From NCBI RefSeq assembly GCF_057098645.1, contig NZ_CM169472.1: DNA of 64,000 bases; one strand, written 5' to 3'. Made by a program: the position numbers and the translations under genes. Under the pieces are notes generated by a model. The model did no database searches, was not told the DNA's origin, and saw nothing but the letters and a program-made list of their open reading frames with translations. Shown here piece by piece: positions 2,501 through 63,408 of this stretch (its first letter is position 1; every line of letters starts with the position of its first letter).

Positions 2501-3363
2501 GCTTAGTCAGCCGTTGTCTCCGGGTGTCGCGTGCGCAGTTGCACGTCATTCTCAGACGAACCGATGACTGGATGGATGGCCGCCGCAGTCGTCACACTGA
2601 TGATACGGATGTGCTTCTCCGTATACACCATGTTATCGGAGAGCTGCCCACGTATGGTTATCGTCGGGTATGGGCGCTGCTTCGCAGACAGGCAGAACTT
2701 GATGGTATGCCTGCGATCAATGCCAAACGTGTTTACCGGATCATGCGCCAGAATGCGCTGTTGCTTGAGCGAAAACCTGCTGTACCGCCATCGAAACGGG
2801 CACATACAGGCAGAGTGGCCGTGAAAGAAAGCAATCAGCGATGGTGCTCTGACGGGTTCGAGTTCTGCTGTGATAACGGAGAGAGACTGCGTGTCACGTT
2901 CGCGCTGGACTGCTGTGATCGTGAGGCACTGCACTGGGCGGTGACTACCGGCGGCTTCAACAGTGAAACAGTACAGGACGTCATGCTGGGAGCGGTGGAA
3001 CGCCGCTTCGGCAACGATCTTCCGTCGTCTCCAGTGGAGTGGCTGACGGATAATGGTTCATGCTACCGGGCTAATGAAACACGCCAGTTCGCCCGGATGT
3101 TGGGACTTGAACCGAAGAACACGGCGGTGCGGAGTCCGGAGAGTAACGGAATAGCAGAGAGCTTCGTGAAAACGATAAAGCGTGACTACATCAGTATCAT
3201 GCCCAAACCAGACGGGTTAACGGCAGCAAAGAACCTTGCAGAGGCGTTCGAGCATTATAACGAATGGCATCCGCATAGTGCGCTGGGTTATCGCTCGCCA
3301 CGGGAATATCTGCGGCAGCGGGCTTGTAATGGGTTAAGTGATAACAGATGTCTGGAAATATAG
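2458..3363 (+). CDS. insD: IS2 OrfB (InsD), DDE transposase catalytic part; normally expressed as an InsCD fusion
   Basis: 301-aa ORF with integrase-core (DDE) motifs, in the -1 frame relative to insC. Confidence 0.93.
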
Positions 3364-36936: not shown

Positions 36937-36983
36937 TGTTGTATCCTGTTTTTAAGTGATGGCGGCAGTATAGCGGCATGGGG

Positions 36984-38309
36984 TCAGGGCTTCAAAGTTT
37001 GCACCTCTGCGGCTGCGTTACGGCATGATTCATCCGTCAACGGAATAATAATGTCTCTGTTGTGAAGTTCGCGCACATTCTCTTCTCTGACGCGTGTTTT
37101 CGCCGGGCAGGGGGAGGGTGTAATCCTTACCTCTGTATCGGTCCATGTATAAACATTGCGATCGTCATAAGCGAAGCGATCGTTTTTAGTTAGCGGACCG
37201 TTAACTGGAATAATTTGCACGCTCTTTGACCGTAATTGGCGGATAAAATAAGCATGCTGTTTGCCGCTATTAAATGAGTGATCAATGACCAGGTCTGGCG
37301 TATCCAGCGGGATTATCTCAAGCTGGTCTTCACCAAATGTCGATAATTTTGTTACATACAACCGATCTTTATATTGCGCAATATTGCCAGTAATCAGATG
37401 AAATTGTTCAGGTTCAATACCTGGTAGGTCTATCCACTTGCTCCACTGACGGTCGGGCGTGAGCTGTTTACGCCAGCGAACGCGACTTTCCCCTACTTCA
37501 AAAGAGACGTCATCATCTACGGGTATCGCTTTGCCAGACAATTGCCCAAAGGGATAACGATGCAGACCCTTATTGTCGCGAAAAACCAGCAGTGAATGAG
37601 GTATCCAGCGAATTATCTCAAATGAGTCTGCATTCGCTGTAAGGTGAACGGCATTTAAATAAATATTCTGCCCACTGCGGATAAGCAGATCATTGGAATA
37701 CAAATTTCTGTTTACACTCATAAGACGTGGATTAATACCCCACCATCTTTTTTCTAATACAGTAACATTATTGCTGCTCCCCTGACGTCGACCGGACAAA
37801 TAGAGATTTTTACTATCCACCAGCGTGGTAGAGTTACCTTCGATAGCTTTTAGTGTCGCCAGATCAACACGTGACGCGCCGCTATTACTTTCGGTGCGCT
37901 GTCCATCAAAATAGAGGCTATATTTATCGACCGCGAAGCGGCCCATAGCCTGAAAGCTGGCAATATCGACAGTGGGTGTTCCCGGTGGATTGCTAACGAT
38001 TTTGCCACGCCAGAGAATAACGCGGCCGTCTGTCACCCAGTGGTATTCCTCATTTTTTATGCTTATTTCATCAGTGGGTATATAGCCTTCCACTAACTCC
38101 CGCTCCCCGGATATATTTGTCACAAGGCGCAAATCGGCTCTGTTCATCTTCGGAAATTGGGCAATGATTTTCTCATCCTCCCCATAACCTTTACCGTAAG
38201 ACATAACACCGTGATCATTGTAATAGTCGAACCCTATGGCCTGTGCAGCAGGTGTCAGAAATGTGTGCCCCAACAGGATGAGTGCAACTGTGATTATTTG
38301 ACCCTTCAT
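36984..38309 (-). CDS. secreted repeat protein with DKNYY-like motifs (paralog A), Sec signal peptide, function unknown
   Basis: 441-aa ORF; N-terminus MKGQIITVALILLGHTFLTPAAQA; repeated D-x-N-x-VY-type motifs (DDRNVYTWTD, DKYSLYFDGQRT); clear paralogy with the upstream ORF; ATGA start/stop overlap at 38306-38309. Confidence 0.7.
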   Translation of the reverse strand: MKGQIITVALILLGHTFLTPAAQAIGFDYYNDHGVMSYGKGYGEDEKIIAQFPKMNRADLRLVTNISGERELVEGYIPTDEISIKNEEYHWVTDGRVILWRGKIVSNPPGTPTVDIASFQAMGRFAVDKYSLYFDGQRTESNSGASRVDLATLKAIEGNSTTLVDSKNLYLSGRRQGSSNNVTVLEKRWWGINPRLMSVNRNLYSNDLLIRSGQNIYLNAVHLTANADSFEIIRWIPHSLLVFRDNKGLHRYPFGQLSGKAIPVDDDVSFEVGESRVRWRKQLTPDRQWSKWIDLPGIEPEQFHLITGNIAQYKDRLYVTKLSTFGEDQLEIIPLDTPDLVIDHSFNSGKQHAYFIRQLRSKSVQIIPVNGPLTKNDRFAYDDRNVYTWTDTEVRITPSPCPAKTRVREENVRELHNRDIIIPLTDESCRNAAAEVQTLKP

Positions 38310-39814
38310 TTTGTCGCCTCATTGCGCGGGGCAGGAATAAATTCGCCGTCATCGGTAATTTTTCCGTCCAGATATCCCGTTTTGTAATTTACCCCGTAGC
38401 CATATCCCGAATGTTGTTCCTTCCAGATTAAGCGAACTTGTTTCGGATCAGCGGTGCGGTATCGCCAGAGCTGCGCGCCATCAAAGCTGTAAACGTAGCG
38501 GTTATCGCGGGCATACCATCTGCGCAAAAAGGGATGGTCATTAAGATGGGCTTCGCGTTCATCCGGAGAACGGTTATCCAGTAAGAGCAGCGGTCCGTCA
38601 GATTCAAACACGTGTAAACCGGAATGGTATGGCCACCCTTCGGCACGCGTAAGTAAATAGCCGTGGCGTTTCCCGGCGTTGAAACGTTTGTTGATAATAA
38701 GATTGGGATCATCAAGTTTCACGATCTCCAGCTTGCGGTCACCAGACTCTGTTTCGATGATGGTATAAAGCGAGTCCTGATACTGTGCGACAGCATCACT
38801 GATGGGGTGAAACTGTTCCGGATCGAGTCCCGGTAATTCTTCCTGTTTACAGTCAGGCCCCTGACGCCAGAACACTTTCTTTTCCAGCAGAGAAAAATCC
38901 AGACAGTGCTTTGTTAAATCCTCATCCCACGCCAGATTTTCCTTGTCGAGGACTTTACGCTGTAGCCCGTTTTTATCACGCCAGGTCAAGAGTGAGCCGG
39001 GCATCCAGCGCACGACGGAAAAGGTGTCCGGGTCGGCAACAAGCTGTTCACCGTTGATCAGGATTTTGGTCCGTGTACGAGCCAGGGTATCCCAGGGGCC
39101 GAATGGTACGGCAACGCAGGGGTTAAACGTGGTGGAAAACTTTCCTCGCTGATCCCAGGACTTCTGCGCCAGCACACGGAAACTCTCGGGGTCAGCGAGG
39201 CGATGCCCATTGATATACAAGAAATTAGCGTCACGTAATATCAGCCCCAGTAAGTCAGGAGCCCAGGGAGGCCGGAATTCCACCTGATGCAGCGTTTTGA
39301 TATCTAAGCTATTTCTCCCACCATTGTCATCGGTGCGCTTGCCTTCAAAATAGAGACTGTGTTTATCTGCAGCAAAATCACCCCATGCCTTGAACGAGGC
39401 GACATCGACGGGAGGTGTGCCGGGAGGGTTTTGCACAACTTCACCCGCGTAGAGGATATTGCGACCATCGCTATACCAGGAATAATGAGGATACCAGGCC
39501 TGTGCGCCCTCATAGAGGTAGTCGGTTGTCAAATCAGTCTGAGGCGGTTCTTTATCCCATTCGTCTAGTGTTGTCGGGTCTATTAATAAATTGGGTAACC
39601 GACGCAAACTCTTGTAATTCACGTCAGGTAGAGAAAGATTTGTTTCTTTATAAGGGCGCAGGTACACCACGCCTTTTCCCTGTTTCTGGTAAATATTATG
39701 TTCAGGTGCGGAAAGCCGACATCCCCATGCCGATGATAAGACCAATGAACAAGCCAACAAACAAACCACATTGCGATAGTGCATAAAGCCATCCTGGCGC
39801 GAGGTGCCGATCAC
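38306..39814 (-). CDS. secreted or lipoprotein repeat protein with DKNYY-like motifs (paralog B), function unknown; true start may be the internal ATG at 39784
   Basis: 502-aa ORF; hydrophobic N-terminus VVCLLACSLVLSSAWGC; shares NPPGTPxVDxASFxAxGxFAxDKxSLYFxGxRT and LPGxxPEQFH blocks with paralog A. Confidence 0.7.
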   Translation of the reverse strand: MIGTSRQDGFMHYRNVVCLLACSLVLSSAWGCRLSAPEHNIYQKQGKGVVYLRPYKETNLSLPDVNYKSLRRLPNLLIDPTTLDEWDKEPPQTDLTTDYLYEGAQAWYPHYSWYSDGRNILYAGEVVQNPPGTPPVDVASFKAWGDFAADKHSLYFEGKRTDDNGGRNSLDIKTLHQVEFRPPWAPDLLGLILRDANFLYINGHRLADPESFRVLAQKSWDQRGKFSTTFNPCVAVPFGPWDTLARTRTKILINGEQLVADPDTFSVVRWMPGSLLTWRDKNGLQRKVLDKENLAWDEDLTKHCLDFSLLEKKVFWRQGPDCKQEELPGLDPEQFHPISDAVAQYQDSLYTIIETESGDRKLEIVKLDDPNLIINKRFNAGKRHGYLLTRAEGWPYHSGLHVFESDGPLLLLDNRSPDEREAHLNDHPFLRRWYARDNRYVYSFDGAQLWRYRTADPKQVRLIWKEQHSGYGYGVNYKTGYLDGKITDDGEFIPAPRNEATK

Positions 39815-48745: not shown

Positions 48746-48751
48746 TTATTT

Positions 48752-49243
48752 CTAAAAATTGTCTTTTTTAAAGTCATGCGGATTGAAAACTCGCTCTATT
48801 TTATTTTCTTGTGTTAATTGATACTCAGTAAAATCGTTAATACCAATATGAGTGTTACGATAAGGGTATTCATTAATAACCATTAAGTAATTTTTCACGA
48901 TGCAATTATCATTGCTCTTAATTGTCGGGAAACAGTAGAGATCTTCATACGGCCCTTCGATATATTTTTTATAGTCAGTGAAGCCATTACCGATATCAAT
49001 GACATACCAGATATGCCAACTACCTTCTGGTAGGGGATGTTGATTTTTAATTTCATTCTGATGCTTCAGATACCAATTTATTTTATCGCTGTCAGTCCAT
49101 GGCAGATGATCAACGACCAGAAAGACTGAATTGCCAGCATCAGAGTATGTATACAAAATCTGTACAGGACGCAATGTCCATAAATTATAGATACAGCATA
49201 GAAGAAATAAACATAATATAATTTTCTGGCGTTTGCTTTTCAT
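48752..49243 (-). CDS. hypothetical membrane-anchored protein (N-terminal TM helix, extracytoplasmic domain); candidate partner of the upstream gene
   Basis: 163-aa ORF MKSKRQKIILCLFLLCCIYNLWTL...; very AT-rich codon usage; starts 27 bp after the upstream gene's stop. Confidence 0.6.
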   Translation of the reverse strand: MKSKRQKIILCLFLLCCIYNLWTLRPVQILYTYSDAGNSVFLVVDHLPWTDSDKINWYLKHQNEIKNQHPLPEGSWHIWYVIDIGNGFTDYKKYIEGPYEDLYCFPTIKSNDNCIVKNYLMVINEYPYRNTHIGINDFTEYQLTQENKIERVFNPHDFKKDNF

Positions 49244-49270
49244 AGATAATTTTCGATTCTTTCGATAGTG

Positions 49271-50084
49271 TTAAAATTGGTGAAAAAAGGTTTGAAAGCA
49301 AAGCCTTTATGCCGTTGTAAAAAGAACCATATGCGAAAAAATCTATATTTGCTGTAAGTCTTGTTTTTGATATCAGTTACATCAAGACCGAAGTGGTCCT
49401 GTGCTACAAAATGAATTGTCGCACTCCACCCTATAGCGTATTTTTGAAAGCTTAAAAGAGATATTTTTTGAGCTGAAATATCATGAACACTGATTCCTAA
49501 GCCATTAAAACTGTCCTCGAAGTCATTAAATTTATTTAGTCTTGATGAAAGTAATTTGGTTTTAATGCTTTGCAGGATAAGAGGTTGGTATCCTGTCGAG
49601 GGAGTTGAATTAATGCCATTTTCGATACATTCTTTGATTATTCGTATTGGACTATTATAACCATATTTATTTTTTCATGAAAAGATAAATTTAATTGTTG
49701 GCTATGAAAATTGCTGCCATTTCCATATCTAAAATGTTCAATCAGATCTTCGATAAGTGTTTTATATTGTCCAAAAAAGGAAAAAATTTTTGCTAGTTCT
49801 TTCATTTCTGCAAATAAAATATCAGTGCATTCACGTTGTGATATTTTTGTTCCGGAACTTGAGGCACTAAAAGCAACATTAATAGAACCTGGGCCAGGGA
49901 AATGGTATTTAATAAGTCTGTAAGGATCAACTTTTGCTGAGATATCGCTTAGGCCGAGTGAGAGAAAATCTTGTTCTACCATATCACCATATTGCATATC
50001 ATCAGCAGAATAATCATCAAATAAACTAATAGTTTCGAAAAGTGTACAGGGAATATTAATTGATGGAAGTAATGTGTTATTCAT
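49271..50084 (-). pseudogene. hypothetical protein of about 270 aa interrupted by a -1 frameshift at an A6 run (148-aa N-terminal ORF plus about 125 in-frame codons lacking any start codon)
   Basis: ORF 49638-50084 ends ...SFHEKINMVIIVQYE*; the next frame stays open from the overlap catgAAAAAAtaaatatgg down to the stop at 49271 and contains no ATG/GTG/TTG. Confidence 0.6.
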
Positions 50085-50209
50085 TTACATTTTCCTTGGT
50101 TATATTTAAGCTCAATATCAATTTGAGAACAAATGCTAGGGTAAAAAAAATTTAAAAAAGAAGTACACTTCACATTTTTATTACATTCCGAAGGGAATCT
50201 CGTTATTGA

Positions 50210-50413
50210 TTGGTTTTGCCCATTGTTAATAACAATATGTTGAATTTACCGATTAGGAAACTTTTTCCTACGCGGATTGCCTCCAGCTATGGGATGAACT
50301 TTGAGTTTATGCCAGAACTGAAGTGGAGTTTCGGCTACCCTGGCGCGATTATCTTTATGATCCTCGCGGGCCTGGCACCGCATCTGTACTTTAAGCGTAA
50401 GAACTGGCTGTAA
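50210..50413 (+). pseudogene. displaced corA 3' fragment (last ~46 codons, [11 protein letters not shown] end); not an independent gene
   Basis: 67-aa ORF whose C-terminal 45 residues equal the CorA C-terminus with one Y to H change; no corA N-terminal region upstream. Confidence 0.8.
50277..50413 (+). repeat. direct repeat copy 2 of the corA 3' terminus
   Basis: offset of exactly 1703 bp from copy 1. Confidence 0.85.
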
Positions 50414-57264: not shown

Positions 57265-58287
57265 ATGTTTCAGCAGCAAAAAGACTGGGAAACAAGAGAA
57301 AACGCGTTTGCTGCTTTTACCATGGGACCGCTGACTGATTTCTGGCGTCAGCGTGATGAAGCAGAGTTTACTGGTGTGGATGACATTCCGGTGCGCTTTG
57401 TCCGTTTTCGCGCACAGCACCATGACCGGGTGGTAGTCATCTGCCCGGGGCGTATTGAGAGCTACGTAAAATATGCGGAACTGGCCTACGATTTGTTCCA
57501 TTTGGGGTTTGATGTCTTAATCATCGACCATCGCGGGCAGGGACGTTCCGGTCGCCTGTTAGCCGATCCGCATCTCGGGCATGTTAATCGCTTTAATGAT
57601 TATGTTGATGATCTGGCGGCATTCTGGCAACAGGAGGTCCAGCCCGGTCCGTGGCGTAAACGCTACATACTGGCACATTCGATGGGCGGTGCGATCTCCA
57701 CATTATTTCTGCAACGCCATCCAGGTGTATGTGACGCCATTGCGCTAACTGCGCCAATGTTTGGGATCGTGATTCGTATGCCGTCATTTATGGCACGGCA
57801 GATCCTCAACTGGGCCGAAGCGCATCCACGTTTCCGTGATGGCTATGCAATAGGCACCGGGCGCTGGCGCGCGTTGCCGTTTGCTATCAACGTACTGACC
57901 CACAGCAGACAGCGATATCGACGTAACTTACGCTTCTATGCTGATGACCCAACGATTCGCGTCGGTGGGCCGACCTACCATTGGGTACGCGAAAGTATTC
58001 TGGCTGGCGAACAGGTGTTAGCCGGTGCGGGTGATGACGCCACGCCAACGCTTCTCTTGCAGGCTGAAGAGGAACGCGTGGTGGATAACCGCATGCATGA
58101 CCGTTTTTGTGAACTCCGCACCGCCGCGGGCCATCCTGTCGAAGGAGGACGGCCGTTGGTAATTAAAGGTGCTTACCATGAGATCCTTTTTGAAAAGGAC
58201 GCAATGCGCTCAGTCGCGCTCCACGCCATCGTTGATTTTTTCAACAGGCATAACTCACCCAGCGGAAACCGCTCTACAGAGGTTTAA
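57265..58287 (+). CDS. pldB: lysophospholipase L2
   Basis: 340-aa alpha/beta-hydrolase ORF with GHSMGG nucleophile elbow. Confidence 0.93.
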   Translation: MFQQQKDWETRENAFAAFTMGPLTDFWRQRDEAEFTGVDDIPVRFVRFRAQHHDRVVVICPGRIESYVKYAELAYDLFHLGFDVLIIDHRGQGRSGRLLADPHLGHVNRFNDYVDDLAAFWQQEVQPGPWRKRYILAHSMGGAISTLFLQRHPGVCDAIALTAPMFGIVIRMPSFMARQILNWAEAHPRFRDGYAIGTGRWRALPFAINVLTHSRQRYRRNLRFYADDPTIRVGGPTYHWVRESILAGEQVLAGAGDDATPTLLLQAEEERVVDNRMHDRFCELRTAAGHPVEGGRPLVIKGAYHEILFEKDAMRSVALHAIVDFFNRHNSPSGNRSTEV

Positions 58288-58294
58288 ATTTCTT

Positions 58295-59095
58295 ATGTAC
58301 CAGGTTGTTGCGTCTGATTTAGATGGCACGTTACTTTCTCCCGACCATACGTTATCCCCTTACGCCAAAGAAACTCTGAAGCTGCTCACCGCGCGCGGCA
58401 TCAACTTTGTGTTTGCGACCGGTCGTCACCACGTTGATGTGGGGCAAATTCGCGATAATCTGGAGATTAAGTCTTACATGATTACCTCCAATGGTGCGCG
58501 CGTTCACGATCTGGATGGTAATCTGATTTTTGCTCATAACCTGGATCGCGACATTGCCAGCGATCTGTTTGGCGTAGTCAACGACAATCCGGACATCATT
58601 ACTAACGTTTATCGCGACGACGAATGGTTTATGAATCGCCATCGCCCGGAAGAGATGCGCTTTTTTAAAGAAGCGGTGTTCAAATATGCGCTGTATGAGC
58701 CTGGATTACTGGAGCCGGAAGGCGTCAGCAAAGTGTTCTTTACCTGCGATTCCCATGAACAACTGCTGCCGCTGGAGCAGGCGATTAACGCTCGCTGGGG
58801 CGATCGCGTCAACGTCAGTTTCTCTACCTTAACTTGTCTGGAAGTGATGGCGGGCGGCGTGTCGAAAGGCCATGCGCTGGAAGCGGTGGTGAAGAAACTG
58901 GGCTACAGCCTGAAGGATTGTATTGCGTTTGGTGACGGGATGAACGACGCCGAAATGCTGTCGATGGCGGGGAAAGGCTGCATTATGGGCAGTGCGCACC
59001 AGCGTCTGAAAGATCTGCATTCGGAGCTGGAAGTGATTGGTACTAATGCCGAAGACGCGGTACCGCATTATCTGCGTAAACTCTATTTATCGTAA
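58295..59095 (+). CDS. yigL: HAD-family sugar phosphatase (Cof subfamily)
   Basis: 266-aa product from ATG 58295 (MYQVVASDLDGTLL...). Confidence 0.9.
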   Translation: MYQVVASDLDGTLLSPDHTLSPYAKETLKLLTARGINFVFATGRHHVDVGQIRDNLEIKSYMITSNGARVHDLDGNLIFAHNLDRDIASDLFGVVNDNPDIITNVYRDDEWFMNRHRPEEMRFFKEAVFKYALYEPGLLEPEGVSKVFFTCDSHEQLLPLEQAINARWGDRVNVSFSTLTCLEVMAGGVSKGHALEAVVKKLGYSLKDCIAFGDGMNDAEMLSMAGKGCIMGSAHQRLKDLHSELEVIGTNAEDAVPHYLRKLYLS

Positions 59096-59170
59096 TCGTT
59101 CTTTATTTGGTCAGTTGTCAACCTGATACTTCGCTACAATGGATACTCGTTAATCAAAGAGTTTTCCATT

Positions 59171-60070
59171 GTGGCGCTACTTATCATCACCACGATTCTG
59201 TGGGCCTTCTCCTTTAGCTTTTATGGCGAGTACCTTGCGGGGCACGTCGATAGCTATTTTGCGGTGCTGGTGCGCGTTGGCCTGGCGGCACTCGTTTTTC
59301 TGCCGTTTCTGCGTACCCGTGGCAATAGCCTGAAAACAGTCGGCCTGTATATGCTGGTGGGCGCGATGCAGCTCGGCGTGATGTATATGCTGAGTTTCCG
59401 CGCTTATCTCTACCTGACGGTTTCCGAACTGCTGCTGTTCACCGTACTGACGCCGCTCTACATCACGCTGATTTATGACATCATGAGTAAGCGCCGTCTG
59501 CGCTGGGGATATGCTTTTAGTGCCTTGTTGGCGGTGATTGGTGCCGGGATTATTCGCTATGATCAGGTCACCGACCATTTCTGGACTGGCTTGTTGCTGG
59601 TGCAACTCTCCAATATCACTTTTGCCATCGGCATGGTGGGTTACAAACGCCTGATGGAAACTCGCCCGATGCCGCAGCATAACGCCTTTGCGTGGTTCTA
59701 TCTTGGCGCGTTCCTGGTGGCGGTAATTGCATGTTTCTTGCTGGGAAATGCGCAGAAAATGCCGCAAACCACGTTGCAATGGGGCATTCTGGTGTTTCTT
59801 GGCGTGGTGGCTTCCGGGATTGGCTACTTTATGTGGAACTACGGCGCAACCCAAGTAGACGCCGGAACGCTGGGCATTATGAATAATATGCACGTTCCGG
59901 CAGGGCTGCTGGTTAACCTGGCTATCTGGCACCAACAGCCGCACTGGCCAACGTTTATTACAGGCGCGCTGGTGATCCTGGCCTCACTGTGGGTGCATCG
60001 TAAGTGGGTCGCTCCGCGCTCTTCACAAACGGCAGATGATCGCAGGCGTGATTGCGCGCTGAGCGAATAA
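59171..60070 (+). CDS. yigM: EamA-family transporter (biotin uptake)
   Basis: 299-aa 10-TM ORF; 3' end overlaps the convergent metR 3' end. Confidence 0.85.
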
Positions 60071-60911
60071 ATGCTTCTGTAATCGGCTGACGCTGCTCGC
60101 CATCGCGCACGGCGGCGTACAGCCGGCTCCACAAGCCTTCGCCCAGGGTTTTGGTCGCCACCAGATCCTGGCGCTCAAAACTCTCTACTACCCAATGTGG
60201 TAGCGCGGCAATACCCATCCGCGCGGCAACCATCTGAATCAACAATAAGGTGTTATCGATGCTTTTCAGTGACGGGCTGACGCCTGCCGGCTGAAGAAAA
60301 TGCCGCCAGACATCCAGTCGACTACGCTGCACCGGATAAATTAATAGCGTCTCGCTGGCGAGATCTTCCGGTGTAATACGCGTTTTTGCCGCCAGTGGAT
60401 GGTCAGGTGCTAACACCAGGCGTACTTCATAATCGAACATCGGCGAATAATGCAGGCCACTGCGCGGCAGGATATCGGAGGTCATCACCAGATCCAGCTC
60501 GCCCTGTTGCAACGCGGGCTGCGGGTCAAACGTCACGCCCGATTTAAAATCCATCTCTACCTGCGGCCAGTTCTTATGGAAATTTTCTAACGCGGGTGTC
60601 AGCCACTGAATACAGCTATGGCACTCAATGGCAATGCGCAGACGCGTCTGCTGCGGTTCATTGCAGGCTTGCAGTGCCTGGCTGATTTGCGGCAGCACCT
60701 GGTTTGCCAGTTGCAACAGGATTTCTCCCTGCGGTGTAAAGCGTAGCGGCTGGCTCTTACGCACAAATAGCCGGAAGCCAAGGCGTTGTTCCAGATCGCT
60801 AAACTGGTGAGACAGGGCGGATTGCGTCTGATGCAACGTCGCCGCAGCGGCTGCGAGAGAGCCGCAGTTCCGCAACGCTTGTAGCGTTTTCAGGTGTTTT
60901 ACTTCGATCAT
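59958..60911 (-). CDS. metR: LysR-family transcriptional activator MetR
   Basis: 317-aa [57 protein letters not shown]... Confidence 0.95.
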
Positions 60912-61146
60912 GAAAGTCCTTCACTTCGGCATGAATAATTTGCGCTTGAGGAATATACAGTAACCGCCAATTATGGATGTGTAAACATCTGGACGGCTAA
61001 AATCATTCGTCTTTTAAATTTATGGTGCGTTGGCTGCGTTTCTCCACCCCGGTCACTTACTTCAGTAAGCTCCCGGGGATGAATAAACTTGCCGCCTTCC
61101 CTAAATTCAAAATCCATAGGATTTACATATAATTAGAGGAAGAAAA

Positions 61147-63408
61147 ATGACAATATTGAATCACACCCTCGGTTTCCCTCGCGTTGGCCTGCGTCGCGAG
61201 CTGAAAAAAGCGCAAGAGAGTTATTGGGCGGGGAACTCCACGCGTGAAGAACTGCTGGCGGTAGGGCGTGAATTGCGTGCTCGTCACTGGGATCAACAAA
61301 AGCAAGCGGGTATCGACCTGCTGCCGGTGGGCGATTTTGCCTGGTACGATCATGTACTGACCACCAGTCTGCTGCTGGGTAACGTTCCAGCGCGTCATCA
61401 GAACAAAGATGGTTCGGTAGATATCGACACCCTGTTCCGTATTGGTCGTGGACGTGCGCCGACTGGCGAACCTGCGGCGGCAGCGGAAATGACCAAATGG
61501 TTTAACACCAACTATCACTACATGGTGCCGGAATTCGTTAAAGGCCAACAGTTCAAACTGACCTGGACGCAGCTGCTGGAGGAAGTGGACGAGGCGCTGG
61601 CGCTGGGCCACAACGTTAAGCCTGTGCTGCTGGGGCCGGTTACCTGGCTGTGGCTGGGGAAAGTGAAAGGTGAACAGTTTGACCGCCTTAGCCTGCTGAA
61701 CGCCATTCTGCCGGTTTATCAGCAAGTGCTGGCAGAACTGGCGAAACGCGGCATCGAGTGGGTACAGATTGATGAACCCGCGCTGGTACTGGAACTACCA
61801 CAGGCGTGGCTGGACGCATACAAACCCGCTTACGACGCGCTCCAGGGACAGGTGAAACTGCTGCTGACCACCTATTTTGAAGGCGTAACGCCAAATCTCG
61901 ACACGATTACTGCGCTGCCTGTTCAGGGGCTACATGTGGACCTTGTACATGGTAAAGATGACGTTGTTGAACTGCACAAGCGCCTGCCTTCTGACTGGCT
62001 GCTGTCTGCGGGTCTGATCAATGGTCGTAACGTCTGGCGCGCCGATCTTACCGAGAAATATGCGCAAATTAAGGACATTGTCGGCAAACGTGATTTGTGG
62101 GTGGCATCTTCCTGCTCGTTGCTGCACAGCCCCATCGACCTGAGCGTGGAAACGCGTCTTGATGCAGAAGTGAAAAGCTGGTTTGCCTTCGCCCTACAAA
62201 AATGCCATGAACTGGCACTGCTGCGCGATGCGCTGAACAGTGGTGACACGGCAGCTCTGGCAGAGTGGAGCGCCCCAATTCAGGCGCGTCGTCACTCTAC
62301 TCGTGTACATAATCCGGCGGTAGAAAAGCGTCTGGCGGCGATCACCGCCCAGGACAGCCAGCGTGCGAATGTCTATGAAGTGCGTGCTGAAGCCCAGCGT
62401 GCGCGTTTTAAACTGCCAGCGTGGCCGACCACCACGATTGGTTCCTTCCCGCAAACCACGGAAATTCGTACCCTGCGTCTGGATTTCAAAAAGGGCAATC
62501 TCGACGCCAATAACTACCGCACGGGCATTGCGGAACATATCAGGCAGGCCATTGTTGAACAGGAACGTTTGGGACTGGATGTGCTGGTACATGGCGAGGC
62601 CGAGCGTAATGACATGGTGGAATACTTTGGCGAGCACCTCGACGGGTTTGTCTTTACGCAAAACGGTTGGGTACAGAGCTACGGTTCCCGCTGCGTGAAG
62701 CCACCGATTGTTATTGGTGACGTTAGTCGCCCGGCACCGATTACCGTGGAGTGGGCGAAGTATGCGCAATCTCTGACTGATAAACCGGTGAAAGGGATGC
62801 TGACTGGCCCGGTGACCATTCTCTGCTGGTCGTTCCCGCGTGAAGATGTCAGCCGTGAAACCATCGCCAAACAAATTGCGCTGGCGCTGCGTGATGAAGT
62901 GGCGGACCTGGAAGCCGCAGGAATTGGCATCATCCAGATTGATGAACCGGCGCTGCGCGAAGGTTTACCGCTGCGTCGTAGCGACTGGGATGCATATCTC
63001 CAGTGGGGCGTGGAGGCCTTCCGTATCAACGCCGCCGTGGCGAAAGATGACACACAAATCCACACTCACATGTGTTATTGCGAGTTCAACGACATCATGG
63101 ATTCGATTGCGGCACTGGACGCAGACGTCATCACCATCGAAACCTCGCGTTCTGACATGGAGTTGCTGGAGTCGTTCGAAGAGTTTGATTATCCGAATGA
63201 AATCGGTCCAGGCGTCTATGACATTCACTCGCCAAACGTACCGAGCGTGGAATGGATTGAAGCCTTGCTGAAGAAAGCGGCAAAACGCATTCCGGCAGAG
63301 CGCCTGTGGGTCAACCCGGACTGTGGCCTGAAAACGCGCGGCTGGCCAGAAACCCGCGCGGCACTGGCGAACATGGTGCAGGCGGCGCAGAACTTGCGTC
63401 GGGGATGA
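61147..63408 (+). CDS. metE: cobalamin-independent methionine synthase
   Basis: 753-aa [33 protein letters not shown]... Confidence 0.96.

Follow-up and report, generated by a model that had tools for sequence, protein, structure and literature searches.

A convergent 113-bp overlap of bioP and metR and a stem-loop embedded in metR

Genes and coordinates at the bioP/metR locus

The bioP gene (yigM) occupies positions 59171–60070 of the + strand, starts with GTG, and encodes a protein of 299 aa, and metR, which encodes a LysR-type methionine regulator of 317 aa, occupies positions 59958–60911 of the − strand; both coding sequences (CDSs) are found in the open reading frame (ORF) listing and in the RefSeq annotation. 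As the original prediction held, the two genes overlap tail to tail by 113 bp (positions 59958–60070), and this arrangement is borne out by the ORFs, by cross-species comparison, and by RefSeq both here and in the K-12 MG1655 record, where bioP is located at 4011076..4011975 and metR at 4011863..4012816. The same two CDSs are present in the PGAP annotation of a 100%-identical O145 chromosome. In the overlap, codon positions 1, 2, and 3 of bioP pair with positions 1, 3, and 2 of metR, respectively. The window (i.e., the whole 64-kb stretch of DNA that was analyzed) contains nine other convergent CDS pairs with spacers of 39–166 bp, and bioP/metR is the only pair that overlaps. The overlap was remarked on by Côté et al. 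(2016; PMC5120140) and is already documented in both literature and annotation, so that the arrangement itself is not new. The sole new detail at this locus is an RNA hairpin within metR that apparently replaces the missing terminator.

Both ORFs are real genes as judged by their assigned families (EamA/TIGR00950 and PRK15421) and by the RefSeq names bioP and metR. YigM/BioP is a 10-helix biotin transporter of the EamA/DMT family in which the Pfam EamA match extends to residue 275 and TIGR00950 spans residues 11–273. In its AlphaFold model (mean pLDDT 92.9), the last transmembrane helix comprises residues 259–284 and the final 19 residues have pLDDT values of 65–67, and alignments with distant YigM homologs stop at about residues 275–285. 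For MetR, the NCBIfam model PRK15421 spans residues 1–317 and HTH_1 is matched; the Pfam LysR_substrate match ends at residue 288, and residues 87–296 align with the solved regulatory domain of MetR (4ab5).

The stop codon of bioP (TAA, 60068–60070, + strand) is invariant in all 78 aligned species and is the complement of positions 2 and 3 of the MetR Phe281 codon and position 1 of the Ile282 codon. Because any TTT or TTC followed by ATx in metR necessarily reads as a stop codon on the bioP strand, the end of bioP is fixed by this Phe-Ile junction. On the − strand, metR ends in tandem stops (TAA TAA, 59955–59960) that are the complement of the YigM Phe262-Ile263-Thr264 codon junctions; the first of these occurs in 76 of the 78 species, and the second serves the two species with a MetR of 318 aa. 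Both ORFs were thus found to end where the original prediction had placed their stops, and these stop positions are conserved across 80 Enterobacteriaceae species.

Among the Enterobacteriaceae sampled, the overlap is present in 80 of 80 species with a range of 68–116 bp: it measures 113 bp in 76 species, 116 bp in two, 98 bp in one, and 68 bp in one. No indels were found; MetR and YigM are 317 aa and 299 aa long, respectively, in the 76 species with the 113-bp overlap, and within the family a 284-aa YigM and a 312-aa MetR are each found in one species. Outside the Enterobacteriaceae, overlaps in the same register are found in Yersinia (113 bp), Rahnella (95 bp), Pectobacterium (95 bp), and Dickeya (98 bp). 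The genes are separated in Serratia, Mixta, and Pantoea, which encode shorter forms of both proteins (YigM 282–287 aa; MetR 307–316 aa), and clusters of 284/285-aa YigM also exist. Un-overlapping in Serratia through duplication of the shared segment was considered and rejected, as the DNA similarity did not exceed a shuffled null and the protein resemblance was weak. Distant YigM homologs (identity of 51% or less) are not adjacent to metR and were uninformative about the origin of the overlap. We also dropped statistical rarity as an argument for the overlap because open antisense frames are not improbable here: with stop frequencies of 0.061 and 0.025 in the antisense frames, the probabilities of 37 stop-free codons are 0.10 and 0.39. 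The overlap is established, rather, by conservation and annotation.

A stem-loop inside metR and transcription across the overlap

The original prediction stated that the overlap leaves no room for terminators. This holds in that there is zero intergenic space and that the canonical combination of hairpin and U-tract is absent on both strands. A consensus scan of positions 58900–61200 returned no intrinsic terminator, a relaxed scan for hairpins followed by T-runs returned weak candidates only, and an Rfam scan of positions 58000–62000 gave two sub-threshold matches in the metR-metE intergenic region and none in the overlap. The prediction overlooked a stem-loop inside the metR CDS, however, as well as published Rho termination on the + strand (Adams 2021). 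The stem-loop (60083–60126, + strand; K-12 coordinates 4011988–4012031) consists of 18 pairs without a U-tract, lies in metR codons 262–277, and begins 13 nt past the bioP stop; we propose it as the 3'-end hairpin of the bioP mRNA. The sequence that follows it, CTCCACAAGCC, is not U-rich, and the next 120 nt have a C/G ratio of 1.86.

The free energy of this hairpin is −28.0 kcal/mol here, −24.9 kcal/mol in K-12, and −25.3 kcal/mol on average over 78 species. No other conserved 44-nt window of the 1.74-kb region is as stable (−25.8 vs. −10.4 ± 2.8), and resampling of synonymous metR codons gave −14.4 ± 3.6 with a probability of 0.005 of reaching −25.3 or lower. In the alignment, 94.7% of cells are paired and double-sided changes occur at three pairs. 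Overlapping genera retain the hairpin, whereas non-overlapping genera with the same MetR peptide lack it, a contrast in which the non-overlapping side comprises just two independent lineages, Serratia and Erwiniaceae. These comparisons demonstrate that the hairpin is kept by selection on metR synonymous sites. We also looked for a matching hairpin at the 3' end of metR; the best candidate (59899–59942, − strand) was rejected because its stability does not exceed that of the synonymous null (−16.8 vs. −16.4, p = 0.44).

Published data place a Rho termination region on the + strand with a peak at 59799 (K-12 4011704), a position that is approximate because 800-nt windows were used (Adams et al. 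2021, supplementary file 2). In that study, 98 reads upstream and 21 downstream were counted in the absence of bicyclomycin, and 300 and 326, respectively, in its presence (Rho score 5.07, p = 1.3e-12), and read-through on the + strand thus rises under Rho inhibition at a resolution of about 800 nt. The peak is inside bioP, approximately 330 nt upstream of the hairpin, and premature intragenic termination is a possible alternative source of this signal. The Term-seq tables of Adams et al. list no 3' end near K-12 4012031 or anywhere in bioP/metR, which low expression could explain, and the TERMITe supplements contain no mapped 3' ends at bioP/metR. Downstream of the stem-loop, a C-rich and G-poor tract (60127–60246, + strand) is a candidate rut-like Rho-loading region, with a C/G ratio of 1.86 across Enterobacteriaceae compared with 0.94 in the rest of the metR antisense strand. 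We rejected this tract as evidence of rut-site selection because non-overlapping genera have a similar C/G skew, which reflects the amino acid composition of MetR; the tract is compatible with Rho loading. Rho-terminated mRNAs generally end just past stable stem-loops that lack U-tracts, some of them inside downstream coding regions, and these stem-loops are followed by sequence in which C exceeds G (Dar and Sorek 2018; PMC6061677).

Most likely, the hairpin defines the 3' end of the bioP mRNA and protects it against exonucleases. Alternatively, it could act in the metR mRNA, or, as a two-sided stem-loop, it could set the place where polymerases collide head-on and thereby act as a bidirectional terminator element without U-tracts. 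Both strands form stable folds, and in its 91-nt context in this strain the metR-sense strand is at least equal (−41.2 vs. −38.0 kcal/mol); moreover, Wang et al. (bioRxiv 10.1101/2022.10.23.513370) report that collisions between convergent polymerases occur at defined positions only if the nascent RNA forms a stem-loop. Because the metR-sense strand also folds well, the assignment of the hairpin to a strand rests on the cross-species average, in which the + strand is the more stable one (mean −25.3 vs. −21.8 kcal/mol; + strand more stable in 67 of 78 species, p = 2e-11) and contains many G-U pairs, which are A-C mismatches on the opposite strand. In the metR mRNA, on the other hand, the stem of E. 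coli is located 41 codons before the stop codon and is therefore unable to serve as the productive terminator of metR, as ending there would leave a non-stop mRNA. The start of the hairpin only 13 nt past the bioP stop also speaks against a role other than at the bioP 3' end, and the spacer hairpins of non-overlapping genera likewise lie roughly close behind that stop. We therefore regard a role in metR or in collisions as unlikely and the role at the bioP mRNA 3' end as the better reading.

As originally predicted, transcription of each gene runs antisense through the 3' end of the other: given the geometry, neither polymerase can avoid transcribing 113 nt or more in antisense to the other gene, and RNA-seq analyzed with ExcludonFinder catalogs the overlap of the bioP and metR transcripts (PMC12288877). 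The overlap might thus constitute a regulatory excludon in which polymerase collisions or double-stranded RNA cleaved by RNase III couple or mutually exclude metR and bioP expression, possibly linking biotin uptake to methionine/SAM metabolism. Antisense transcription is unavoidable in this arrangement, the architecture is conserved in three enterobacterial families, and bioP-metR is one of 165 convergent excludons of MG1655, its transcripts overlapping in half or more of the 58 RNA-seq data sets considered (PMC12288877). Listing, however, is automatic for any expressed pair of overlapping CDSs, and anticorrelated expression is no part of the criterion. Serratia, Mixta, and Pantoea keep the genes apart with terminator hairpins between them, apparently without harm, and the selected hairpin together with Rho activity resembles devices that limit read-through rather than exploit it. 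Read counts on the + strand are low (98 per 800 nt), and collisions would then be rare. We found no published report of bioP-metR coupling, and the sole documented cross-talk is physical, in that the Keio deletion of metR also damages yigM (Côté 2016; PMC5120140). The suggestion in the original prediction that expression of the biotin-transporter gene may be coupled to metR is thus unsupported. An excludon is, in our judgment, quite unlikely, and the read-through-limiting arrangement of Rho and hairpin remains the reading that we prefer.

Coding constraint within the overlap

We compared codon-position entropy column by column in 78 aligned Enterobacteriaceae species and found that the overlap is divided into three parts. 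In the part proximal to the metR stop (sub-region B, 59958–60004), YigM helix 10 (residues 263–278) is constrained and the MetR tail (residues 303–317) evolves like out-of-frame sequence: the second-position entropy of MetR is 0.977 here compared with 0.075 in the rest of metR and 0.950 past the metR stop, and the wobble entropy of YigM is 1.046 compared with 1.086 elsewhere (p = 0.60). In the part proximal to the bioP stop (sub-region A, 60023–60070), MetR residues 282–297 are nearly invariant and the YigM tail (residues 285–299) evolves almost like out-of-frame sequence, with a second-position entropy of 0.701 in YigM compared with 0.115 in the rest of yigM and 0.842 past the yigM stop; here, the wobble entropy of MetR is 0.657 compared with 0.949 (p = 0.012), a weak extra constraint. 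Between them is a core of approximately 18 bp (60005–60022), in which YigM W279–S284 is encoded opposite MetR S298–N303 and both frames are constrained. From approximately 1.0 elsewhere, wobble entropy drops in this core to 0.25 (YigM frame) and 0.21 (MetR frame) (Mann–Whitney p = 5e-4 and 3e-4, respectively). Dual-frame purifying selection is therefore clear only for these ~18 bp (60005–60022), and one frame dominates elsewhere. As judged from the aligned codons, the tails of approximately 15 residues in MetR and YigM appear to be mostly unconstrained passengers, and only ~18 bp are clearly dual-coding. The passenger reading also draws on the family domain models and the solved MetR fold, which end short of the C-termini, on the low pLDDT of the YigM tail, on the early end of alignments with distant YigM homologs, and on the shorter natural forms of both proteins.

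Some observations hint weakly that the tails are not wholly free, namely the lowered MetR wobble entropy in sub-region A (p = 0.012), the frozen wobble positions of YigM Val268, Leu270, and His276, and the rarity of premature stops.

These observations would fit a model in which both C-terminal tails are functional and dual-coding selection keeps the whole 113 bp, as would the nearly invariant tail lengths (76 of 80 species). A premature stop occurs in each tail in just 1 of 78 species, where free synonymous resampling predicts about 40%; some YigM wobbles are frozen opposite MetR Asp305, Pro311, and Ser313, and MetR wobble variability is lowered opposite the YigM tail. Against this, second-position variability in the tails matches that of out-of-frame sequence (0.98 vs. 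0.95 for MetR and 0.70 vs. 0.84 for YigM), and YigM wobble rates are normal under the MetR tail. Furthermore, Serratia, Mixta, Pantoea, Pectobacterium, and Dickeya lack these tails or have shorter or unrelated ones, and the invariance of the tail lengths may be explained by the intolerance of the partner gene to indels. When the synonymous codons of the partner are resampled, the tail frames stay open in 57% and 62% of trials, which fits passenger tails. Selection for function along both tails is accordingly improbable in our estimation, and we retain the passenger reading.

Although misannotation is common among long overlaps (Pallejà et al., PMC2478687), the proposition that one ORF ends earlier because of a miscalled stop, so that there is no overlap, is effectively refuted already, given that the stops are read straight from the sequence free of start-codon ambiguity, are conserved across three enterobacterial families, and are annotated identically in the curated K-12 record, and that the Keio metR deletion impairs yigM function (Côté 2016; PMC5120140). 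At the bioP/metR locus, two functional genes truly overlap in convergent orientation, and the arrangement is ancient; no result marks it as a regulatory device.

Proposed explanation and comparison with known systems

We favor, with a probability of roughly 0.6, a joint explanation that combines a genuine ancient overlap, passenger tails, and Rho-ended bioP transcripts that carry the metR-embedded hairpin at their 3' end. Without an intergenic spacer, each ORF continues antisense to its partner as far as the first stop codon, which in both genes is set by the Phe-Ile codon junction of the partner protein described earlier, and the constraint on the partner gene would bar indels and thereby freeze the geometry. 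With no spacer to hold an intrinsic terminator, Rho would end bioP transcripts within the metR antisense region, the strand and region being taken from the published data, and the stem-loop at 60083–60126, encoded in metR synonymous sites, would set and shield the 3' end of the bioP mRNA. On a weaker reading, the metR CDS could have been recruited as a 3'-end element of its neighbor and co-evolved with the loss of the intergenic terminator. It is very unlikely, in our view, that the overlap and the embedded hairpin form a regulatory module in which metR transcription, high when methionine/SAM is short, interferes with or destabilizes the bioP mRNA, or the reverse; such a module, if true, would tie biotin uptake to the state of methionine metabolism, as biotin synthesis consumes SAM.

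The joint explanation does not overturn current understanding, and it has consequences for annotation, genetics, and evolution. In annotation, bioP/metR is a clean positive control, as one of its genes would be trimmed in error by filters that discard overlaps above 60 bp. In genetics, a deletion or tag placed at the 3' end of one gene also harms its neighbor, and such damage has already caused a misleading synthetic-lethal signal between metR and bioA (Côté 2016; PMC5120140); likewise, "synonymous" recoding of metR codons 262–277 may disturb bioP. In evolution, the locus provides a natural series, from overlapping genes with a hairpin embedded in one of them to a bidirectional terminator of 32 bp and to a wide spacer, that shows how the job of a terminator may shift into the coding sequence of a neighbor.

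Conserved long convergent gene overlaps in prokaryotes were reportedly described by Rogozin et al. in 2002. Like these, bioP/metR exceeds 60 bp, is arranged tail to tail, comprises two well-characterized genes, and probably arose via 3' extension into the neighbor. In a later analysis, long true overlaps were accepted in convergent orientation only, and most putative true cases were shared only by very closely related species (Pallejà et al. 2008; PMC2478687). Unlike the latter cases, bioP/metR keeps its register across the Enterobacteriaceae, the Pectobacteriaceae, and part of the Yersiniaceae, and unlike the known long overlaps in general, it has been dissected into two passenger tails and an 18-bp dual-frame core.

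As in excludons, the convergent bioP and metR transcripts overlap, and the pair is part of the MG1655 core excludome (PMC12288877). Classical excludons, however, involve overlaps of long UTRs and mutually exclusive expression, whereas the overlap of bioP/metR is in the CDSs themselves and any antagonistic expression of the two genes is hypothetical.

The bioP hairpin resembles the stem-loops of Dar and Sorek (PMC6061677) in that it is stable, lacks a U-tract, is directly followed by sequence in which C exceeds G, and is located in the coding region of a downstream gene, on a strand for which a Rho termination region has been measured; it differs from them in being without a mapped 3' end in the Term-seq tables of Adams et al. 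It also differs in that the downstream gene is a convergent ORF whose synonymous sites keep the hairpin, and in that the hairpin is absent in relatives that have terminator-type spacer hairpins after bioP.

Bidirectional intrinsic terminators are said to occur between convergent genes, as described by Ju et al. in 2019. The 32-bp spacer at the orthologous locus of Serratia has exactly such an element, in which A- and T-tracts border a GC-rich stem. In Mixta, both genes are followed by a terminator-type hairpin of their own; in Pantoea, bioP is followed by such a hairpin and metR by a weaker-looking one. The E. coli hairpin is likewise palindromic and can form in both transcripts, but it differs from these terminators in having neither a spacer nor flanking A/U tracts and in that its stem lies wholly inside metR.

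Extent and phylogenetic depth of the overlap

The bioP gene (yigM), which encodes the biotin transporter YigM, extends over 59171..60070 on the + strand (GTG start, 299 aa), and metR, which encodes the LysR-type regulator MetR, over 59958..60911 on the - strand (317 aa). The 113-bp tail-to-tail overlap at 59958..60070 (both strands) claimed in the original prediction is confirmed by the ORF list, by PGAP, which calls exactly the same two CDSs on the identical O145 chromosome, by the curated K-12 record (bioP 4011076..4011975, metR 4011863..4012816; K-12 coordinate = window coordinate + 3,951,905), and by cross-species conservation. The window is E. coli DNA: its region 59100-61000 is 100% identical to that of O145 strain RM9872, and 5,425 of the 5,426 complete genomes of the species match it. 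As such, the overlap is not new; it is present in the RefSeq and K-12 annotation, was discussed in 2016, and was catalogued in 2025. Côté et al. 2016 (PMC5120140) described yigM as a gene that "overlaps substantially" with metR, and put the synthetic lethality of metR and bioA down to the damage that the metR deletion of the Keio collection also does to yigM. The present analysis adds the depth of conservation of the overlap, its division into passenger tails and an 18-bp core constrained in both frames, and a selected stem-loop within metR.

We did not retain the rarity of open antisense frames as an argument for the overlap, because the stop frequency of 0.061 in the MetR frame antisense to yigM gives P = 0.10 for 37 stop-free codons, that of 0.025 in the YigM frame antisense to metR gives P = 0.39, and the same two frames contain open stretches of 74 and 65 codons outside the overlap. 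The case therefore rests on conservation. In a scan using one genome per species, all 80 Enterobacteriaceae species have the overlap (113 bp in 76, 116 in 2, 98 in 1, and 68 in 1), and no indels were found in the region among them, although YigM identity drops to about 80%. The same register is found beyond this family in Yersinia (113 bp), Rahnella (95 bp), Pectobacterium (95 bp), and Dickeya (98 bp), with the yigM stop 841 nt after the metR start in each. At one compared Dickeya locus from a Logan assembly (L083, 556-1455), about 45 internal YigM residues read like another frame (GGTGVSWRGG...), which accounts for a YigM identity of only 57% and probably reflects a pair of compensating assembly frameshifts and not real divergence. 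YigM homologs at 51% identity or less lie in unrelated gene contexts.

Three of the genera compared lack the overlap. Serratia has a YigM of 287 aa and a MetR of 316 aa with 32 bp between the genes, and this spacer is a textbook bidirectional intrinsic terminator (AAATATCA-GGGCAGC...GCTGCCC-GTTTATTT). Mixta encodes YigM (282 aa, ending ...WVLR*) and MetR (307 aa) with 476 bp between the two genes, each of which is followed by a terminator-type hairpin, and in Pantoea (287 and 313 aa) a DUF1456 gene lies in between and hairpins follow both genes, the one after metR being weaker looking. These genera show the usual content of a spacer, and their natural truncations mark the ends of the functional proteins, at about YigM residue 282 and MetR residue 302. 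That three families share one register speaks for the overlap having arisen once, in which case, on the presumed family tree, Serratia and the Erwiniaceae would be secondary separations; we looked for a sequence trace of an un-overlapping duplication and found none.

The other nine convergent CDS pairs in the 64-kb window are all spaced, by 39-166 bp. Elsewhere in the window, two adjacent "hypothetical protein" genes (36980-39780, - strand; about 441 and 492 aa) between cyaY and lptM of this O145 strain may be strain-specific cargo, possibly a defence-type pair. The stretch downstream of corA (48748-50413) holds a DUF943 gene and a YPO3983-family gene, followed by a 147-bp pseudogene fragment annotated "CorA family, missing N-terminus"; the arrangement resembles an insertion with duplication of the 3' end of corA. 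A PemK/MazF-family toxin gene (2872-3321, - strand) adjoins ppiC with no antitoxin annotated beside it. In the yigL-bioP spacer (59096-59170), some 50 nt ahead of the GTG start of bioP, TTGTCAACC resembles one half-site of the BirA operator (TTGTAAACC); this spacer has no properly spaced second BirA-like half-site and no good sigma-70 match in a promoter scan. The metR-metE intergenic region (60952-61132, - strand) gives matches to the Rfam families Ysr49 (24.7 bits, E = 0.09) and Vibrio AS5 (22.4 bits, E = 0.2) that are far below the gathering scores and probably represent chance matches or a conserved regulatory region.

Passenger tails and a doubly constrained core

Codon positions 1, 2, and 3 of bioP pair with positions 1, 3, and 2 of metR, which leaves no site that is synonymous for both proteins. 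By the entropy of each column in an alignment of 77-78 species, the 113 bp fall into three parts. In region B (59958-60004, both frames), which encodes YigM helix 10, YigM wobble entropy is similar to that of the rest of the gene (1.046 vs. 1.086 bits, p = 0.60). MetR second-position entropy here is 0.977, compared with 0.075 in the rest of metR and 0.950 beyond the metR stop; because second positions are as variable as in the out-of-frame continuation, MetR residues 303-317 are essentially passengers. Region A (60023-60070, both frames) shows the reverse: MetR residues 282-297 hardly vary, with mildly lowered wobble variability (0.657 vs. 0.949, p = 0.012), and YigM residues 285-299 shift along with the synonymous sites of MetR, at a second-position entropy of 0.701, where the remainder of yigM has 0.115 and the sequence past its stop 0.842. 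Between them lies the core (60005-60022, both frames), where YigM W279-S284 is opposite MetR S298-N303 and wobble positions are frozen in both frames (0.25 and 0.21 bits, p about 4e-4). This partition agrees with the Pfam and TIGRFAM models, which stop at YigM residues 273-275 and MetR residue 288, with the solved MetR regulatory domain, whose alignment reaches residue 296, with distant YigM homologs, whose alignment ends at residues 275-285, and with the AlphaFold model of YigM (pLDDT 92.9), in which the last membrane helix ends at residue 284 and the tail has a pLDDT of 65-67.

In bioP and metR alike, the amino acid sequence of the partner fixes the stop. On the bioP strand, TAA (60068-60070, +) is complementary to MetR Phe281 positions 2-3 and Ile282 position 1, where TTT or TTC followed by ATx always produces a stop; on the metR strand, TAA TAA (59955-59960, -) is complementary to the codon junctions of YigM Phe262-Ile263-Thr264. 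Given the partner amino acid sequence, an earlier stop is possible at only one or two sites per tail, and the tails stay open in 57% and 62% of trials when partner synonymous codons are resampled. Natural early stops give a 284-aa YigM in one species and a 312-aa MetR in another; the shortened YigM proteins P0075, P0076, and P0087 comprise clusters of 284 and of 285 aa, of which one includes Salmonella serovar Gaminara, and a 269-aa form from Shigella flexneri, and at one compared locus (L062) the stop at YigM codon 285 comes from a synonymous change in MetR Val296. Early stops are rarer than expected under free resampling, and some wobble positions do not vary; the tails may therefore be under slight selection.

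A stem-loop embedded in metR

The original prediction left no room for terminators, and there is indeed no spacer and no canonical terminator on either strand around the overlap; however, a stem-loop at 60083-60126 (+), which starts 13 nt beyond the bioP stop and lies within metR codons 262-277, exceeds every other local structure of the area in stability. Its folding energy is -28.0 kcal/mol here and -24.9 in K-12, which differs at three positions that all keep pairing as G-U, and the mean for 78 species is -25.3 kcal/mol. Among conserved 44-nt windows across the two genes (1.74 kb), none comes close to it (-25.8 vs. -10.4 +/- 2.8). When the invariant MetR peptide at the hairpin is recoded with metR's own codon usage, the resulting synonymous null is -14.4 +/- 3.6 kcal/mol, and the family mean is reached by 0.5% and the E. 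coli value by 0.07% of resamples. The four overlapping genera outside the Enterobacteriaceae keep the hairpin (Yersinia -26.7, Rahnella -22.6, Pectobacterium -30.7, Dickeya -29.2) with compensatory C-G to U-A changes, whereas nonoverlapping genera with the same MetR peptide are at the null (Serratia -15.1, Mixta -12.9, Pantoea -12.0). Across 85 sequences, 94.7% of cells are paired compared with 21-46% in slid registers, and double-sided changes occur at three pairs (11 cells), a count reached by 0 of 500 shuffles. Together, conserved stability, the synonymous null, the lineage contrast, and the pair counts point to selection for the hairpin structure.

G-U pairs are frequent, and in 67 of 78 species the bioP-sense strand folds more stably than its complement (p = 2e-11); in a 91-nt context from the present strain both strands fold well. 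Downstream of the metR stop, no selected hairpin beyond the synonymous null was found (-16.8 vs. -16.4, p = 0.44). The 91-nt context adds outer pairs, GCGAA (60063-60067) with UUCGC (60138-60142) and GCUU (60073-60076) with AAGC (60133-60136), so that the last bioP sense codons before the stop enter the stem base; this extended hairpin (about 60061-60145) has -38 kcal/mol and a z-score of -2.35.

Transcript ends and comparison with known systems

The best-supported reading is that Rho would end bioP transcription in the region antisense to metR, where the embedded stem-loop, in a function that we infer, would set and protect the 3' end of the bioP mRNA. The hairpin lacks a U-tract, and the 120 nt behind it are rich in C and poor in G (C/G 1.86); the same skew occurs in nonoverlapping genera and is thus compatible with Rho loading without being evidence for it. 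A Rho termination region has been mapped on the bioP strand (Rho score 5.07, p = 1.3e-12), with upstream/downstream reads of 98/21 without and 300/326 with bicyclomycin (Adams et al. 2021). Its Rho-score peak at 59799 (K-12 4011704, +) is inside bioP, about 270 nt before the stop and about 330 nt upstream of the hairpin; if accurate, this position would mean premature intragenic termination of bioP and not termination after the gene, but the 800-nt resolution is too low to decide. No 3' end at the hairpin position is listed in the Adams et al. 2021 Term-seq tables or the TERMITe supplements.

The geometry also bears out the claim of antisense transcription, since without a spacer read-through of at least 113 nt is unavoidable. 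A coupling of bioP and metR expression, which had been suggested as possible, is improbable. The pair is among 165 convergent "excludons" of MG1655 reported by ExcludonFinder (PMC12288877), but any two overlapping CDSs that are both expressed enter this list automatically, and the entry is no demonstration of coupling. An important regulatory role is opposed by three points: the genes are apart in Serratia, Mixta, and Pantoea, the hairpin and Rho look like containment devices, and read counts on the bioP strand are low. The locus is chiefly a caution for gene deletion, tagging, and recoding and is otherwise of low general interest.

Long true overlaps are restricted to the convergent orientation and are mostly found among close relatives (Pallejà et al. 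2008, PMC2478687); the bioP/metR pair is of the same kind but unusually deeply conserved, its register being kept beyond the Enterobacteriaceae. In E. coli, mRNAs terminated by Rho have exact 3' ends just behind stable stem-loops that lack a U-tract; such stem-loops also occur inside downstream coding regions, are followed by sequence with C>G, and shield the transcript from PNPase and RNase II (Dar and Sorek 2018, PMC6061677). Like these, the bioP hairpin is stable, lacks a U-tract, lies in the coding region of the neighboring gene, and is followed by C>G sequence, and it appears to be a new member of this known class of protective 3' hairpins.
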